In this document: positions 1 to 16,016 of the stretch, one piece after another
How the letters are laid out: each line of letters begins with the position of its first letter
Numbering within the stretch: position 1 is the stretch's first letter
The notes under the pieces: generated by a model
Seen by the model: the letters and a program-made list of their open reading frames with translations, nothing else
Told to the model about the DNA's origin: nothing
Database searches by the model: none
From: a bacterium
Lineage (GTDB): Bacteria > RBG-13-61-14 > DATKZS01
Direction of reading: 5' to 3'
NCBI GenBank assembly: GCA_963674965.2
Contig: CAXXFL010000002.1
Location: 256,001 to 320,000, forward strand
Length of the DNA stretch: 64,000 nt
Position numbers and translations under genes: made by a program

Positions 1-264
1 CGCGGTGATCGAGTTGGCGCTGGCCCTTTTGCAGGCGTCGAGCACGATAAGGAGTTCCATGATGTTGTCGTTCACCGGCCTGCAGGTGGGCTGGATAACG
101 AAAACGTCCCTTTTCCTTATGTTCTCGTTGATCTTGCAAAAGGTGTTGTCGTTGGCGAACTTGAATATTTCCAGGTCCGCCAGGGGCACGCCTATGTAGG
201 CGCTTATTTTTTGCGCCAACTCGGGGTGGGCCGTGCCCGCAAGCAGTATCAAGCCGTTTTCCAT
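1..264 (-). CDS. prs: Ribose-phosphate pyrophosphokinase, 5' part (runs off window)
   Basis: Hand translation MENGLILLAGTAHPELAQKIS...FANDNTFCKINENIRKRDVFVIQPTCRPVNDNIMELLIVLDACKRASA; ispE-tRNA-Gln-prs synteny. Confidence 0.95.
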   Translation of the reverse strand, partial: MENGLILLAGTAHPELAQKISAYIGVPLADLEIFKFANDNTFCKINENIRKRDVFVIQPTCRPVNDNIMELLIVLDACKRASANSITA

Positions 265-290
265 CAGACACCTCTCGTCTGAGACCATTT

Positions 291-364
291 TGGCTGGGGC
301 GGCAGGATTCGAACCTGCAGTGCGGGATCCAAAGTCCCGTGTCTTGCCATTTGACGACGCCCCA
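291..364 (-). tRNA. tRNA-Gln(TTG)
   Basis: TGGGGCGTCGTCAAATGG...CGGGA-CT-TTG-GA-TCCCG...GGTTCGAATCC...CCA. Confidence 0.95.
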
Positions 365-398
365 ATCGGGATGGTCGCCCCTTAAAACGCCCTGGGCG

Positions 399-734
399 TT
401 ATTTAGCCGGAGCTTCCTCCGGCCGATTGGCGTTTTCCTTTTCCTCGCCGGAAGGCCGGGATTTTTTCGCCCGCCTTTTCTCCTCCGATTTTCTATAGGC
501 CTTCAGCACGGCCGCTTCCAGTTCATCCCTGGCCTCCCGGTTGATCGGGTGCGCCACGTCCCGGAAGGAACCGTCTCTTCGTCTCTTGCTGGGCATGGCG
601 ACGAAGAGACCGCTTGGCCCCATTATAACTTTAACGTCGCGAACCACGAAGCTCTGATCGAGCACGATGGTCACGTACGCCTTAAGTTGCTCTTTATCGT
701 CCACCGGCGTCACTTTTACTTCAGTGATCTTCAT
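399..734 (-). CDS. spoVG: SpoVG family nucleic-acid-binding protein
   Basis: MKITEVKV...LKAYVTIVLD..FVVRDVKVI.G..GLFVAMPS...DVAHPIN. Confidence 0.95.
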   Translation of the reverse strand: MKITEVKVTPVDDKEQLKAYVTIVLDQSFVVRDVKVIMGPSGLFVAMPSKRRRDGSFRDVAHPINREARDELEAAVLKAYRKSEEKRRAKKSRPSGEEKENANRPEEAPAK

Positions 735-770
735 AACCCTACTCCTTAACCGGGCCCAGGGAAAAATTCT

Positions 771-1655
771 TCAATGAAACTCCTCTATGATTTTTCCCTT
801 TATTGTCCCGGCAACGCGCGAGAGAAGGCCGTGTTCCATTTCAAACGCGAGCGCCGCCGCCTCGGCGTTTCTCAGATCGTCGAAGACCCCGAAAACCGTG
901 GGTCCCGACCCGCTCATCATAGCGCCAAGGCCGCCGTTTTCAATCAACAATTTCTTTGCTTTTAATACCTCCGGACGCCGAGCCGTCACCACCGGCTCGA
1001 GATCGTTCCTGAACTCCTTTAGCGAAATGAAATTTCCCGCGTTGCCTGAATGATTTAGGGTATCCCTTTTGGGCGGGGAAGTCAAATCGAAATTCTCGTA
1101 AGCCCAGGAGGCGCTGACGCCGAAGGGGAAACCGACGATCAAAAAGGTCCAGTCCGGGATCGGTCCCGCGGGGGACAGGATTTCTCCCACTCCCTCGGCC
1201 CAGGCCGGCGAATGGAAAAGAAAAAATGGCACGTCCGCCCCGATTTTTGCCGCGGCGCGAATAAGCTCTCCTCCCGGGTCCTCGAAACCGGTGAGCCGAG
1301 CCAGGGCCGCCAGGGTGGCGGCGGCGTTGGACGACCCGCCTCCCAGGCCCCCCGCCACGGGGATATGCTTGTCGATTTTGATCCGGACCCCCCTCGGGGG
1401 GGCGAAGCCGAGGTCGAAGAAAAGCCTGGCCGCCTTATGGCAAAGGTTGCCTTCATCCTCCGGCACGCCGGGGTGGCCGCACTCGATGGATATCTCCTTG
1501 CCGCCAAGCTCGACCTCGACCGAGTCGCAAAGGTCCACGGCCACGTTTAAAAGCTTGACCTCGTGGTATCCGTCCTCGCGTTTCCCCTTGACCTCGAGGT
1601 AAAGGTTGAGCTTGGCCGGAGAGCGCATCCGGACCGGGCCTTTGTCCATCGCCAT
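771..1655 (-). CDS. ispE: 4-diphosphocytidyl-2-C-methyl-D-erythritol kinase
   Basis: PAKLNLYL, IPVAGGLGGGSSNAA, GADVPFF, MSGSGPT motifs; ATG at 1655 has an SD-like GAAGG. Confidence 0.95.
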   Translation of the reverse strand: MAMDKGPVRMRSPAKLNLYLEVKGKREDGYHEVKLLNVAVDLCDSVEVELGGKEISIECGHPGVPEDEGNLCHKAARLFFDLGFAPPRGVRIKIDKHIPVAGGLGGGSSNAAATLAALARLTGFEDPGGELIRAAAKIGADVPFFLFHSPAWAEGVGEILSPAGPIPDWTFLIVGFPFGVSASWAYENFDLTSPPKRDTLNHSGNAGNFISLKEFRNDLEPVVTARRPEVLKAKKLLIENGGLGAMMSGSGPTVFGVFDDLRNAEAAALAFEMEHGLLSRVAGTIKGKIIEEFH

Positions 1656-12174: not shown

Positions 12175-12203
12175 GGCCGGGCCATACTTTATGTCGTTTA
12201 GGC

Positions 12204-12293
12204 TTATCTTTCCGTCTGGGTCCTCCACCAGTTTTTGTCGTGCTTGACGTAAAGCTCGAGGAAGACCTTTTGTCCCCAGAAGTTCTCCAGGAT
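12204..12293 (-). pseudogene. Remnant resembling the 3' end of GTPase Era (KH domain)
   Basis: ILENFWGQKVFLELYVKHDKNW resembles the Era C-terminal motif KVFLELxVKVxKNW. Confidence 0.55.
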
Positions 12294-12499
12294 CTGGGCA
12301 GGATCTGGGGACAGCATACTTATCTCGCTCATATTGCAGGGCAGAGAGGCGTTTATGAATATTCCATCAATATCCACTGTAAGAGAACGCAGATGATTTA
12401 CAATAATTTGGTATACTGCCACCATATCTTCAAAAAATATTTCCGATGGGGGCTTACGCCCCCATCAAATGGTAAAAGGGATAAAGAACTAAAGTGTAA
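12290..12499. repeat. ~210-bp 3' flank duplicated behind both FGE paralogues (copy 1)
   Basis: Near-identical to 14274-14485; ends in a tandem GGATCTGGG(G) junction. Confidence 0.9.
12445..12466 (-). promoter_or_regulatory. GC-stem hairpin 33 nt after stop (DGR cis-hairpin candidate or terminator)
   Basis: GATGGGGGC-GTAA-GCCCCCATC, perfect 9-bp stem. Confidence 0.65.
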
Positions 12500-13819
12500 T
12501 CAGTCCCCGGCGCAACGGAACCCCCTGGAGTTGAACTGGAGAGAAGGCACATAGCCGTTCCGGCCTGCTACGCGCAGGTGGTTCGTAGGGAAGTCCCAAC
12601 TACCGCCGCGCACAACGCGATGCGTACCTGACGGAGGACCGGGAGGATCGTTGGTCGGACTTGAGCTGTAATACGTTGATGAATACCAATCATTGACCCA
12701 TTCCCGAACGTTGCCCGCCATGTCGTAAAGCCCGTAGCCGTTGCCCCCGTAATACGCAACAGTCGAAGTATCGTTGTCCCAGGGATCGCCCGAGTCCAAG
12801 TAATTGGCGTCCGTCCCGCTGATGCTGTCGCCCCAGGGATAGCGTTTGCCGGTAAGGCCGCCTCTGGCCGCATACTCCCATTCCGCTTCGGTCGGAAGCC
12901 TCTTGCCCGCCCAAGTACAGTAGGCCGTGGCCTGGTCCCAACTGACGTAGATTACCGGGAAGTGGTTATAGTCCGGGTTGCCGTAGTAAGAGGGGCGGGT
13001 ATAGCTCGAAGAATTACCCGGCGGGGTGCATCCCCCGCAGCTCACGCAGGTTGCGTACTGCTCGTTGTTCACCTCCCAGATGTCCATGTAGAAGTCCGAG
13101 GTGATGCAGACGTTATGGACCGGGCATTCAAAGGGATATCCGCAGGAATCGCTTGAGTCTCCCATGTTGAAGCAGCCCGCGGGGATAAATGCCATTTGTG
13201 ATACAATTCCACAACTCAATTCCTGGTAGTCAGTTTTGCCATTACAATTATTGTCGATTCCGTCCCAGCATTCTTCGTTTGCTTCGGTTGCGCCTGGATT
13301 GATTGATGCATTTCCATCATGACAGTCATTGCCTCCAACAAGAGTGGATTTGTATCCATCGCCATCTTGATCTGGGTTAGAAAAGGCTATTGAATAGATG
13401 CTGTCCATATCAACACTCAGCGCATACGGCACGCTCGCAATCCTCGCCCTCGGCGTCATCTCCGCGTCCGCGTCAACCTTTACCCCCATCCAGACTTCCT
13501 TGTGCTTCTGGAACACCGCGGCCAGGCTGCTCTCCGTGCCCGGCGTGATCGTGCCCGAACCGATGAGCAGGTTATAAATCCCGCCCGTGACCACCACGTC
13601 CTCCTGTAACACCGTGAGGTACGGCGTCCCGCCCGACTCCACTCCATAGAACGCAAAGGTCAAGTCCACGGTAGTCCCGTCCGCAAGAGGCTGGCCCGCA
13701 GCGTTCGTGAGTCTCCCCTGATAGTTGATAAGCTGCGGAGCGGACTGCGCCCAGGCAATGCCCACCACCACGGCCAGTACTAAAACCCCAACCAAAGCCG
13801 TCCCGATCTTAGCCCTCAT
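12500..13819 (-). CDS. Secreted FGE-sulfatase (SUMF1/C-type lectin fold) protein, DGR target-like, paralogue 1
   Basis: Signal peptide, LINYQGRLT domain, Cys/Asp DCHD..INPGA.E..DGIDNNC motif, [29 protein letters not shown]...GFRC. Confidence 0.92.
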
Positions 13820-13919
13820 TACTTAATTCTCCCTCTTCGAAATTTGTCAGCAATTCATCCATACGTTACCACGCTGTAAAATACAATACCACCCCCCCCA
13901 TCTCGATCGTCAACAGCAA

Positions 13920-14270
13920 TATCCTTGCTCTCGGCGTCATCTCCGCGTCCGCGTCAACCTTCACGCCCATCCACACGTCCTGGTGGTTCTGGAAGACAGC
14001 GGAGAGGCTTGGCTCGGTACCGGGCGTTACCGTGCCCGAACCGATGAGCAGGTTATAAATCCCGCCCGTGACCACCACGTCCTCCTGTAGCACCGTGAGG
14101 TAAGAGGTCCCGCCCGACTCCACGCCATAGAACGCAAAGGTCAAATCAACGGTAGTCCCGTCCGCAAGAGGCTGGCCCGCCGCGTTCGTAAGCCGCCCCT
14201 GGTAATTGACAAGCTGCGGAGCGGACTGCGTCCAGGCAATCCCCACCACCACGGCCAGTACTAAAACCCC
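13920..14270 (-). pseudogene. Truncated third paralogue (N-terminal domain only; native start and C-terminus missing)
   Basis: [28 protein letters not shown]...MTPRARI is nearly identical to both full genes and is fused to flanking repeat DNA. Confidence 0.85.
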
Positions 14271-14273
14271 AAG

Positions 14274-14485
14274 GGATCTGGGGACGGGATCTGGGGACAG
14301 CATACTTATCTCGCTCATATTGCAGGGCAGAGAGGCGTTTATGAATATTCCATCAATATCCACAGTAAGAGAACGCAGATGATTTTCAATAATTTGGTAT
14401 ACTGTCATTATATCTTCAAAAAATATTTCCGGTGGGGGCTTACGCCCCCATCAAAGGGTAAAAGGGAAAAAGAATCAAAGTGTAA
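14274..14485. repeat. ~210-bp 3' flank duplicated behind both FGE paralogues (copy 2, with hairpin at 14431-14452)
   Basis: Near-identical to 12290-12499; TGGGGGC-GTAA-GCCCCCA hairpin at the same spacing from the stop. Confidence 0.9.
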
Positions 14486-15787
14486 TCAGTCCCCAGCGCA
14501 ACGAAATCCAATGTCGTAGTACAGGTCCGAAGGGTCGAAGTAGTCCCGGTAGGCCACGCGCAAGCCGTCCGTACTGCCGCCCCAACCCCCGCCGCGAAAA
14601 ACGCGACACGTACCTGACGGAGGACCGGGAGGATCGTTGGTGGGACTTGAACTGTAATAAGATGATGAATACCTGTCGTTCGTCCATTCCCAGACGTTGC
14701 CCGCCATGTCGTAAAGCCCGTAGCCGTTGGCCGCGTAATACTCTACTTCAGAGGTGTCATTGTCCCAGGGATCGCCCGAATTCCAGTAATTGACGTCCGT
14801 CCCGCTGATTGTATCGCCCCAGGGATAGCGCTTGCCGGAAAGTCCTCCACGGGCCGCATACTCCCACTCAGCCTCCGTCGGCAGCCGCTTGCCCGCCCAT
14901 GCGCAATAGGCCGTGGCCTGGTTCCAGTTTACGTAGATCACCGGGAAATTGTCATAGGTCGGGTTGCCGTAATAAGAGCCCCGGGAATAACTTGAAGAAC
15001 TGTCCGGCGCGGCGCAGACAGCAGCGTCCACGCAGGCCTTGTACTCCGCGTTGGTAACCTCGTGAACGTCCATGTAGAAACTGGAGGTGATGCACACGTT
15101 GTGGACCGGAAGCTCTTCGCTGTAACCCTCGCCGAACGCGTCGCCCATGTTGAAACAACCGGCGGGGATGAGGGCCATGTTAGGCGGAGTTTTAGAGCAA
15201 TCCTCATCATAACGTCCATCACAATCATTATCCAGGCCATCACACTTATCAACGGCCCCAGGATAAATTGAGGCATTATTGTCATTGCAATCGTCATTGG
15301 GAGTGATTGAGCTTTCCGGCTTGTAATGTCCGTCGCCGTCGAGGTCGAGGTTGGCTAAGTTAACGGTTTCGGCTGTTTCCGCCTTTATTGCATATGGGGC
15401 CGAGCTAATCCTGGCCCGCGGCGTCATCTCCGCGTCCGCGTCCACCTTCACCCCCATCCACACCTCCGCGTGTTTCTGGAACACCGCGGCCAAGCTGGTC
15501 TCCGTGCCCGGAGTGATCGTGCCCGAGCCGATGAGCAGGTTATAAATCCCGCCGGTGACCACCACGTCCTCCTGGAGCACGGTGAGGTACGGCGTCCCGC
15601 CCGAGGCCGCGCCATAGAAGGCGAACGACAAATCAACCGTGCTCCCGTCCGCCAGCGGCTGGCCCGCGCCGTCAGTAAGCCGTCCTTGATAATTCACCAA
15701 CTGCGGGACCGACTGCGCCCAGGCAATGCCAACCACCACGGCCATAACCAAAACCCCAACCAACGCCATCCCGATCTTAGCCCTCAT
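14486..15787 (-). CDS. Secreted FGE-sulfatase (SUMF1/C-type lectin fold) protein, DGR target-like, paralogue 2
   Basis: Same architecture as 12500-13819; DCND..IYPGA...CDGLDNDCDG motif; RGGGW...GFRC C-terminus. Confidence 0.92.
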   Translation of the reverse strand: MRAKIGMALVGVLVMAVVVGIAWAQSVPQLVNYQGRLTDGAGQPLADGSTVDLSFAFYGAASGGTPYLTVLQEDVVVTGGIYNLLIGSGTITPGTETSLAAVFQKHAEVWMGVKVDADAEMTPRARISSAPYAIKAETAETVNLANLDLDGDGHYKPESSITPNDDCNDNNASIYPGAVDKCDGLDNDCDGRYDEDCSKTPPNMALIPAGCFNMGDAFGEGYSEELPVHNVCITSSFYMDVHEVTNAEYKACVDAAVCAAPDSSSSYSRGSYYGNPTYDNFPVIYVNWNQATAYCAWAGKRLPTEAEWEYAARGGLSGKRYPWGDTISGTDVNYWNSGDPWDNDTSEVEYYAANGYGLYDMAGNVWEWTNDRYSSSYYSSSPTNDPPGPPSGTCRVFRGGGWGGSTDGLRVAYRDYFDPSDLYYDIGFRCAGD

Positions 15788-15843
15788 GACTTAATTTCCC
15801 TTCCTCGAGATTTGTAGACAATTCATATGTTACCATGCTGTAA

Positions 15844-15872
15844 ATTACAATACTACCCCCCCCCGATGTCAA
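15844..15872 (-). promoter_or_regulatory. Sigma70-like promoter with a G9 tract in the spacer
   Basis: TTGACA-TCGGGGGGGGGTAGTAT (17 nt)-TGTAAT. Confidence 0.6.
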
Positions 15873-16016
15873 ACTCCGATTAATAAAATGTTTTTTTCAC
15901 TAGTCACTCTAAGGAGATGTTTTGGAGAACAACCTGATAAAAGCCGGGGAGCGGATTTTAACTCCGCGCATGGAACGCCAATCGCCCCCCTTCGAAAAGA
16001 GTCCCGCAAGACCCCC

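Follow-up and report, generated by a model that had tools for sequence, protein, structure and literature searches.

The genes at the locus

The window, i.e. the whole stretch of 64,000 nucleotides analysed here, lies on contig C2 of a bacterial genome assembly and contains two neighbouring genes, A and B, with the associated features collected in Table 1. Both belong to a family of at least eight paralogous secreted proteins of the FGE/C-type-lectin fold encoded in this genome (A to H below). In Pfam searches, PF03781 was matched by residues 208-437 of the 439 of protein A (2.9e-60) and by residues 202-431 of the 433 of protein B (2.1e-63), and PF11617 by both (2.8e-09 and 1.2e-11, respectively); the signal peptide listed for gene A is a by-eye judgement. 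Structure matches of protein A include solved FGEs and TvpA of Treponema denticola (2y3c, 1e-21; A residues 268-437). The active-site cysteines on which FGE catalysis relies, a pair within the C-terminal segment, are absent from protein A: the 6muj segment that holds the two Cys is matched there by a gap and by variable residues, none of them Cys. At the opposite end, residues 17-109 of A match NF053851, the N-terminal domain model of the Bdellovibrio MAT chimeric fibre proteins, with 29.9 bits (E = 4.4e-07), below its cut-off of 60, so that the resemblance to this family (PMC10769870) is a lead only.

The initial annotation had called A and B tandem paralogues, which holds in that they are neighbouring secreted FGE/C-type-lectin genes, but the 666 nt between them contain a truncated third copy. 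The start of this remnant has been swapped for a dispersed repeat and its 3' end is joined to the promoter region of gene A; it is 89.8% identical to the N-terminal part of gene A over 352 nt (blastn), and a Pfam search with its ORF gave no match.

Table 1. Positions of the genes, repeats and other elements discussed in the text (window coordinates unless a contig or locus is given)
Feature	Position	Strand	Remarks
Gene A	12500-13819	-	ORF, 439 aa; signal peptide, conserved N-terminal domain, MopE-type Cys motif, FGE-sulfatase domain
Gene B	14486-15787	-	ORF, 433 aa; architecture as gene A
Remnant of third paralogue	13866-14408	-	ORF; N-terminal domain only
VR of gene A	12500-12625	-	last 126 nt including stop codon; gapless alignment to TR
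VR of gene B	14486-14611	-	last 126 nt including stop codon
Hairpin of gene A, GATGGGGGCGTAAGCCCCCATC	12445-12466	-	9-bp stem, 4-nt loop; 33 nt past stop; followed by T run
Hairpin of gene B	14431-14452	-	element as after A, one mismatched pair; 33 nt past stop
Poly-G tract (8)	13892-13899	-	promoter-like region of gene A
Poly-G tract (9)	15856-15864	-	promoter-like region of gene B
TR	C6:952199-952324		126-nt repeat, begins right after RT stop codon
RT	L001 1279-2355		358 aa; 95.8 bits on RVT_1; motif VGNLTSQ

In both genes, the variable region (VR) forms the C-terminal part of the C-type-lectin/FGE-fold domain, the placement expected of a target of a diversity-generating retroelement (DGR). 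The hairpin is an element common to the 3' side of VRs A, B, C, E and F. DGR targets have been described as carrying a hairpin/cruciform with a GC-rich stem of 7-10 bp and a 4-nt loop, 4-34 bp from the VR (PMC3240598), a range into which the stem, loop and distance of the hairpins of A and B fall; their loop, GTAA, departs from the GRNA consensus, which is quoted for phage DGRs. The hairpin after A also scores terminator-like, and the T run that follows it means that it may simply be a terminator.

The pattern of differences between A and B

The initial annotation, made from the letters of the window, had compared the last 41 codons of the two genes and recognised in them the signature of a DGR. 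The 30-nt identical stretch that it quoted is present in both genes at the same offset, and the codon changes are as it described: 11 pairs differ at position 1 and/or 2 only and retain a third-position C, and 3 further pairs retain a third-position T. The other differing pairs include 7 with synonymous third-position changes only and 6 of other kinds. All 14 C/T-retaining codons coincide with AAC, AAT or TAT codons of the template repeat (TR) described below, and A and B differ at 26 of its 39 adenine sites vs 11 of the 81 other sites (Fisher p = 8.6e-9). The codon pattern is far from chance.

Could it nevertheless have arisen without a retroelement, by ordinary divergence of paralogues under diversifying selection? 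A and B are old paralogues, with 76.7% identity across the 600 nt preceding the repeat, as such divergence would have it. However, the concentration of differences on TR adenines (p about 1e-8), the third-position C or T kept in 14 codons and the fact that the matching TR adjoins Avd and a DGR-type RT make this explanation very improbable.

A DGR cassette on another contig

The window holds neither RT nor TR, as had been noted, since the three RVT_1 matches of the genome lie on C6, C7 and C4. It had further been proposed that A and B are DGR targets of a remote RT/TR, either served in trans or relics, and that a non-coding copy with adenines at most mismatches should be sought genome-wide. The TR does lie on C6, beside an RT and Avd, and the mismatches of A and B to it are concentrated on adenines, so that the proposal was borne out. 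Even the translation predicted for the TR, RGGSWNNNTNNLRVANRNNNNP..NNNIGFRC, agrees near-exactly with the one found, ...RGGNWNNNTNNLRVANRNNNTPTNQNNNIGFRCAGD.

Target F comes first in the cassette, followed by avd, RT and TR. The assignment of the RT to the DGR type rests on its RVT_1 score and on its motif, which fits the (I/V/L)GxxxSQ given for domain 4 of the DGR clade in PMC3521204. Avd scores 98.3 bits on NF033474 (DivGenRetAVD; cut-off 80) and 70.7 bits on PF22296 (bAvd; cut-off 40). The retroelement is intact. The remaining two RVT_1 matches resemble group II intron fragments when their ORF translations are judged by eye. Among 30 other genomes, 4 encode RT relatives at E <= 1e-20, and within the same family these are only fragments; none of the 30 relatives searched is of the same genus. 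The predicted fold of the whole TR plus flank RNA is no more stable than those of shuffles (z = -0.88), and when the cassette, the A/B locus and locus H were scanned with Rfam, a tRNA was the sole match.

Template and variable repeats compared

In a 120-nt frame, the TR has 39 adenine sites and 81 others; gene A is mismatched at 22 of the former and 6 of the latter (Fisher p = 1e-8), and gene B at 25 and 9, respectively (Fisher p = 4.5e-9). Over the full 126 nt, and counting adenine plus non-adenine differences from the TR on C6, the paralogues score 22+7 (A), 26+9 (B), 24+10 (C), 23+0 (D), 25+0 (E), 23+1 (F), 31+9 (G) and 21+19 (H), i.e. their non-adenine mismatches form a graded series of 0, 0, 1, 7, 9, 9, 10 and 19. 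A target is defined in PMC5758913 as having a VR that differs from the TR at adenines only, with minor exceptions allowed. Adenines account for 22/29 mismatches in A and 26/35 in B, a highly significant enrichment, yet exceptions numbering 7 and 9 exceed what could pass as minor. They are scattered from position 4 to position 117 of the repeat; in its 3' 21 nt, which may not be transferred in every event, A has mismatches at 114 and 117 and B at 108 and 114, leaving internal non-adenine counts of 5 and 7.

Among relatives, the VR of G001:C27 has 1 non-adenine mismatch to the present TR, at position 114, which is why transfer of the 3' 21 nt may be incomplete in some events. VR-like ends of homologues in other genera have 8 to 10, a distance similar to that of A and B. 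Position 114 itself, T in the TR and C in VRs A, B, C, G and H, was considered as a time marker and dropped, because the TR of the sister genus also has T and the otherwise perfect G001 VR has C. Repeat position 24 is variable even in the cis target F.

The recent work of the element is best seen in genes E and F, the former 222 kb from the cassette. The two show 0 differences in the 839 nt upstream of the VR and 0 in the 142 nt downstream of it, but 29 differences inside the VR, 28 of them at TR adenines. Identical flanks around differences confined to the repeat argue that the element worked recently and in trans; judged from these repeats, its recent action included D and E, both of them distant.

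A and B as probable lapsed targets

What, then, is the standing of A and B, which bear so many adenine changes and so many others besides? The best explanation, to which we assign a probability of roughly 0.65, is that they are lapsed targets of the TR lineage of this one chromosomal DGR on another contig, written long ago. The terminal ~126 nt of each paralogue would have been written by mutagenic retrohoming from the single TR: as in the DGR family at large, the RT would copy TR RNA while misreading adenines, and the cDNA would replace the VR, so that the AAC/AAT codons, whose residues line the ligand-binding face, become randomised. A and B were presumably last rewritten long ago, have gained ordinary point mutations since, and may now be fixed variants within a set of surface proteins that have different tips. 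The synonymous C/T differences that had been flagged at the outset as unexplained by adenine mutagenesis are non-adenine changes, and would likewise have been gained after the last rewriting. Of the two alternatives originally offered, service in trans and relics, the comparison favours relics, because non-adenine mismatches number 7 in A and 9 in B vs 0, 0 and 1 for D, E and F, and because fresh homing, if it proceeds as the mechanism implies, would erase mismatches spread in this way.

It is nevertheless conceivable, if rather unlikely, that A and B are still-active trans targets of the C6 element that are rewritten now and then, in which case their non-adenine mismatches would stem from partial conversion tracts, from RT errors at other bases or from selection. 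The element is intact, and its recent action reached a gene at a distance of 222 kb as well as another contig; A and B have kept the hairpin 33 nt past the stop codon, the GC-rich 3' end of the repeat and ~67 nt of downstream flank common with the cis target, so that nothing visible forbids homing; and the variation at position 24 extends to F, a target in cis. Against this stand, once more, the scattered mismatches, which every homing event should reset and which are nearly absent from D, E and F. A gene that is only rarely rewritten would, however, be indistinguishable in appearance from one that has lapsed.

Assembled contigs (Logan) over 12200-16000, from 2 runs of one sample and one study, contain VR_A in one 305-nt contig (12348-12652), with no differences and a depth of 15-16, near the 13-18 of neighbouring contigs. 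Among the 40 differences listed, none falls inside VR_A or VR_B, in a comparison whose 85% threshold admits paralogues and whose contigs drop rare variants, so that it weighs neither for nor against present-day variation. A metagenome scan with protein A, from which 80 loci were kept, gave a best relative only 70% identical, and hence no orthologue for a VR comparison.

Alternatively, A and B might be served, or have last been written, by a second TR variant outside the assembly, on an unbinned plasmid or phage or since lost. The TR of the sister genus (G002:C9) has the base found at 4 of the 9 non-adenine mismatches of B (chance expectation ~0.6, from 9 x 16/85 x 1/3) and at 4 of the 10 of C, and PMC4891356 describes, in Treponema denticola SP32, a 'leftover' VR that fits a different type of TR. 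Yet none of the 7 mismatches of A is in the G002 state, the genome's own TR fits every VR better than the G002 TR does (non-adenine mismatches 7 vs 25 for A and 9 vs 19 for B), and neither a further TR-like sequence nor a second DGR-type RT was found in the 7 contigs of the assembly, which is 97.6% complete. This explanation is therefore improbable.

Relation to known systems

FGE-type targets, Avd, the avd-RT-TR order and remote targets have each been described already, and the system is a Treponema-type multi-target DGR with avd-RT-TR order. The DGR of Treponema denticola (TvpA) is likewise chromosomal, with FGE-sulfatase-type C-type-lectin targets that bear a C-terminal VR, and likewise combines a target next to it with several at remote sites (PMC5758913); VRs left from another or earlier TR have also been described there (PMC4891356). 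The host is different: its best named TyrRS relative, at 64% identity, is a Sedimentisphaerales MAG, so that on this one marker it looks Planctomycetota-like. The two systems also diverge in their accessory factors and targets. The Treponema DGR is placed by PMC5758913 in a clade with architecture C (HRDC accessory), whereas here Avd is found, in the order avd-RT-TR, and the targets here add the common N-terminal domain and the MopE-type Cys motif. The same avd, RT, TR order with the target upstream is given for architecture B2 DGRs (Wu et al. 2018).

With the DGR of Bordetella phage BPP-1 (Mtd, Avd, TR, bRT), the present one has in common adenine-specific TR-to-VR differences and Avd; a GC-rich hairpin closed by a 4-nt loop also lies a short way past the VR in both, though here it may simply be a terminator. 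The element here is, by contrast, chromosomal and multi-target rather than phage-borne, its TR follows the RT instead of preceding it, and its hairpin loop departs from the consensus quoted for phage DGRs.

What the graded paralogues may mean

From the ends of two genes and nothing else, the DGR signature allowed a TR on another contig to be predicted correctly. Contig-based surveys miss remote targets of this kind; the survey of PMC8144416 itself states that its approach does not detect them. One active cassette together with targets of different ages, moreover, makes this genome a natural setting in which to study what renders a target competent and how targets drop out.

The graded series of mismatches also suggests, tentatively, a life cycle in which a target would be duplicated, diversified in trans, then freed from homing and retained in a fixed form. 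If this were so, the retroelement would generate a stable, germline-like set of surface proteins with different tips. Perhaps the expression of these proteins is switched as well, by the poly-G tracts in the promoter spacers of the paralogues, which range from 5 to 14 bases.

A probable remote template for the ends of A and B

The 3' ends of A and B, the two paralogous secreted FGE/C-type-lectin genes in the window, were almost certainly written by a diversity-generating retroelement (DGR). The codon counts from which the initial annotation had predicted either a remote reverse transcriptase (RT) and template repeat (TR) or relics proved exact: among the last 41 codons, 11 pairs differ only at position 1 and/or 2 with C kept and three with T kept, the remaining differences being seven synonymous third-position changes and six of other kinds, and the 30-nt stretch quoted there is the same in both genes. 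The window spans C2:256001-320000 of a 6.5-Mb genome in 7 contigs; when both gene ends were searched against all of it by short-word blastn, eight further similar ends turned up. The repeat found in this way on contig C6, which is not the end of a full-length gene and abounds in AAC/AAT codons, reads ...YRVLRGGNWNNNTNNLRVANRNNNTPTNQNNNIGFRCAGD, where a TR of the form RGGSWNNNTNNLRVANRNNNNP..NNNIGFRC had been anticipated.

This TR begins immediately 3' of the stop codon of a 358-aa RT (95.8 bits on RVT_1) containing VGNLTSQ, which fits the DGR motif (I/V/L)GxxxSQ as given in the part of PMC3521204 cited here. Upstream of the RT are F, a full-length paralogue and the cis target, and a 114-aa Avd, which scores 98.3 bits on NF033474 (cut-off 80) and also matches PF22296. 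The cassette has the order target, avd, RT, TR, and the avd-RT-TR core corresponds to architecture B2 in the cited part of a DGR survey (PMC5758913). Only two other RVT_1 matches occur in the genome; judged by eye from their translations, they resemble the halves of one group II intron RT. Following the TR, the first gene encodes a D12-class N6-adenine DNA methyltransferase (PF02086, 2.8e-26).

Across the 126-nt variable repeat (VR; the last 126 nt of a target gene, stop included) the TR holds 41 adenines. In a 120-nt frame, which has 39 adenine sites and 81 others, A departs from it at 22 and 6, respectively (Fisher p = 1e-8), and B at 25 and 9 (p = 4.5e-9). The exact codon counts confirm the initial observation; the TR and this adenine bias support its interpretation. 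A ninth end (C1:833376) is far more diverged: in the 120-nt frame it shows 37 mismatches outside adenines.

Features of the window and of the DGR system, with VR mismatches to the TR (126-nt frame)
Feature	Position	Strand	At adenines	Elsewhere
Gene A, ORF, 439 aa	window 12500-13819	-	22	7
Gene B, ORF, 433 aa	window 14486-15787	-	26	9
Third-copy remnant, ORF	window 13866-14408			
Poly-G tract, A	window 13892-13899			
Poly-G tract, B	window 15856-15864			
Dispersed repeat, 3' of A	window ~12302-12424			
Dispersed repeat, 3' of B	window ~14288-14410			
Paralogue C	C2:335647		24	10
Paralogue D	C2:337085		23	0
Third FGE-sulfatase frame, C/D cluster	C2:338623-339309			
Paralogue E	C6:1176064		25	0
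Paralogue F	cis target		23	1
Paralogue G	C7:109192		31	9
Paralogue H	C4:80648		21	19
TR	C6:952199-952324	-		
Methyltransferase gene	L001 (C6) 3-854	-		

An element acting in trans

E and F show no differences in the 839 nt before the repeat and the 142 nt after the stop, and 29 sites within the repeat separate them, of which 28 are TR adenines. The element has therefore rewritten targets since some very recent duplication or conversion. It also acts in trans: E sits 222 kb away from the cassette, with only the first part of avd beside it, and D is on a different contig. By analogy with the DGR family, reverse transcription would be error-prone at adenines and the cDNA would replace the VR.

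D and its neighbour C, 97 nt apart and with an N-terminus of a different, lipoprotein-like type, belong to a second FGE-sulfatase cluster (C2:335647-339309) located 16-19 kb past the window's end. All 23 mismatches of D fall at TR adenines, yet it lacks the hairpin seen after other VRs.

Are A and B still served?

A new homing event should reset non-adenine mismatches, yet A and B carry theirs across the repeat, from position 4 to 117. From these sequence comparisons we put at roughly two in three the probability that both are lapsed or very rarely served targets. That they are currently active is unlikely. Positions 108-117 may fall in a 3' part of the repeat that is not transferred every time (a VR on contig C27 of the sister-genus relative G001 has 15 adenine mismatches to our TR and one other, at position 114 only); with these positions set aside, A and B keep five and seven internal non-adenine mismatches, respectively. 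Homologues in other genera have VR-like ends with 8 to 10 non-adenine mismatches to the TR (first 105 nt or whole frame), about as distant from it as A, B, C and G.

Could another template have written them? Four of the nine non-adenine mismatches of B carry the base found in the TR of a second sister-genus relative (G002:C9), against ~0.6 expected by chance by our own arithmetic, which suggests that the TR was in an earlier state when it wrote B. For T. denticola SP32, the cited part of PMC4891356 reports a leftover VR that fits a TR of another type. A missing TR that serves A and B is less probable even than their current activity. All VRs are closer to the genome's own TR than to that of G002; lapsed or rare service remains our preferred reading. 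Two contig sets from a single sample are the only runs that contain the region, and contigs of this kind can hide variants. The metagenome collection yielded no orthologue, the best match being 70% identical.

Relation to known DGRs

The A/B system belongs to an already known kind of DGR; its interest lies in targets of different ages in series, along with the side observations. In the cited part of the survey, FGE-sulfatase is the largest target category (71 of 372 DGRs), 73 non-adjacent targets are counted in 45 DGRs, 29 targets in ten DGRs lie >100 kb away, and the Treponema DGR holds the maximum of seven non-adjacent targets (PMC5758913). By a strict adenine-only criterion the C6 element has two remote targets (D and E); counting the lapsed ones as well brings the number to as many as seven (A, B, C, D, E, G and H). 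The host looks Planctomycetota-like by a single marker, TyrRS, whose best named relative is a Sedimentisphaerales MAG (64%).

Architecture and flanks of A and B

Both proteins start with a segment that, by eye, resembles a signal peptide. It is followed by a conserved N-terminal domain of ~110 residues without Pfam family, then by PF11617, a MopE-type Cys motif, and lastly by PF03781, an FGE-sulfatase domain (E = 2.9e-60 in A, 2.1e-63 in B) that reaches the final residues; the genome has 20 PF03781 matches, the TR itself among them. Protein A is matched by solved formylglycine-generating enzymes and by the Treponema denticola variable protein TvpA (2y3c, 1e-21). In the 6muj alignment, a two-cysteine segment of the enzyme, whose cysteines we take to be the catalytic ones, stands opposite a gap and variable residues of protein A. 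Residues 17-109 of A give a sub-threshold match (29.9 bits, cut-off 60) to NF053851, the N-terminal domain of Bdellovibrio mosaic adhesive trimer fibre proteins, and the shared N-terminal domain is also present in additional genes that have no VR. The 666-nt A-B spacer holds a remnant of a third copy, N-terminal domain only (89.8% identity to gene A over 352 nt).

A 67-nt downstream flank shared with the cis target is retained after A and B, with a hairpin (9-bp GC-rich stem, 4-nt loop) 33 nt past the stop. Post-VR DGR hairpins, as described in the cited part of PMC3240598, have stems of 7-10 bp, lie 4-34 bp away and carry 4-nt loops with the consensus GRNA; the A/B loop is GTAA with a T run after the hairpin, so this hairpin may simply be a terminator. 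A dispersed repeat of ~125 nt lies 3' of both genes (at least 15 copies, roughly 76-83% identity, all 7 contigs), and a second short multi-copy repeat farther downstream of A.

Poly-G tracts precede A, B, E, F, G and H (8, 9, 14, 12, 5 and 7 nt), flanked by a conserved TTGACA-like box on one side and, on the other, by a conserved block ~60 nt before the start codon. Such an arrangement is typical of promoter spacers that phase-vary by strand slippage; none of these sites was called in a promoter scan.

The cassette in relatives

Pieces of the same cassette occur in G001 (C27, C29) and G002 (C9, C282): in G001 the 3' part of an RT, and also a VR with one non-adenine mismatch to our TR, on G002:C9 a TR with its 3' element, preceded by only 20 nt of RT end, and on G002:C282 half a TR plus a partial RT whose stop is TAG. 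These could reflect decay or fragmented assembly. The ~100 nt 3' of the TR on C6 (L014 1273-1380, minus strand) are conserved after H (L020 2650-2749, plus strand) and 3' of the G002 TR (L184 1278-1385). In an RNAalifold consensus of these three sequences only, the final 8 TR nucleotides pair with a stretch ~70 nt downstream, enclosing two hairpins, the first with GNRA loops and two pairs with compensatory change. This flank may serve the DGR RNA as its 3' element, or it may have been left behind when the TR arose from the end of an H-like gene.
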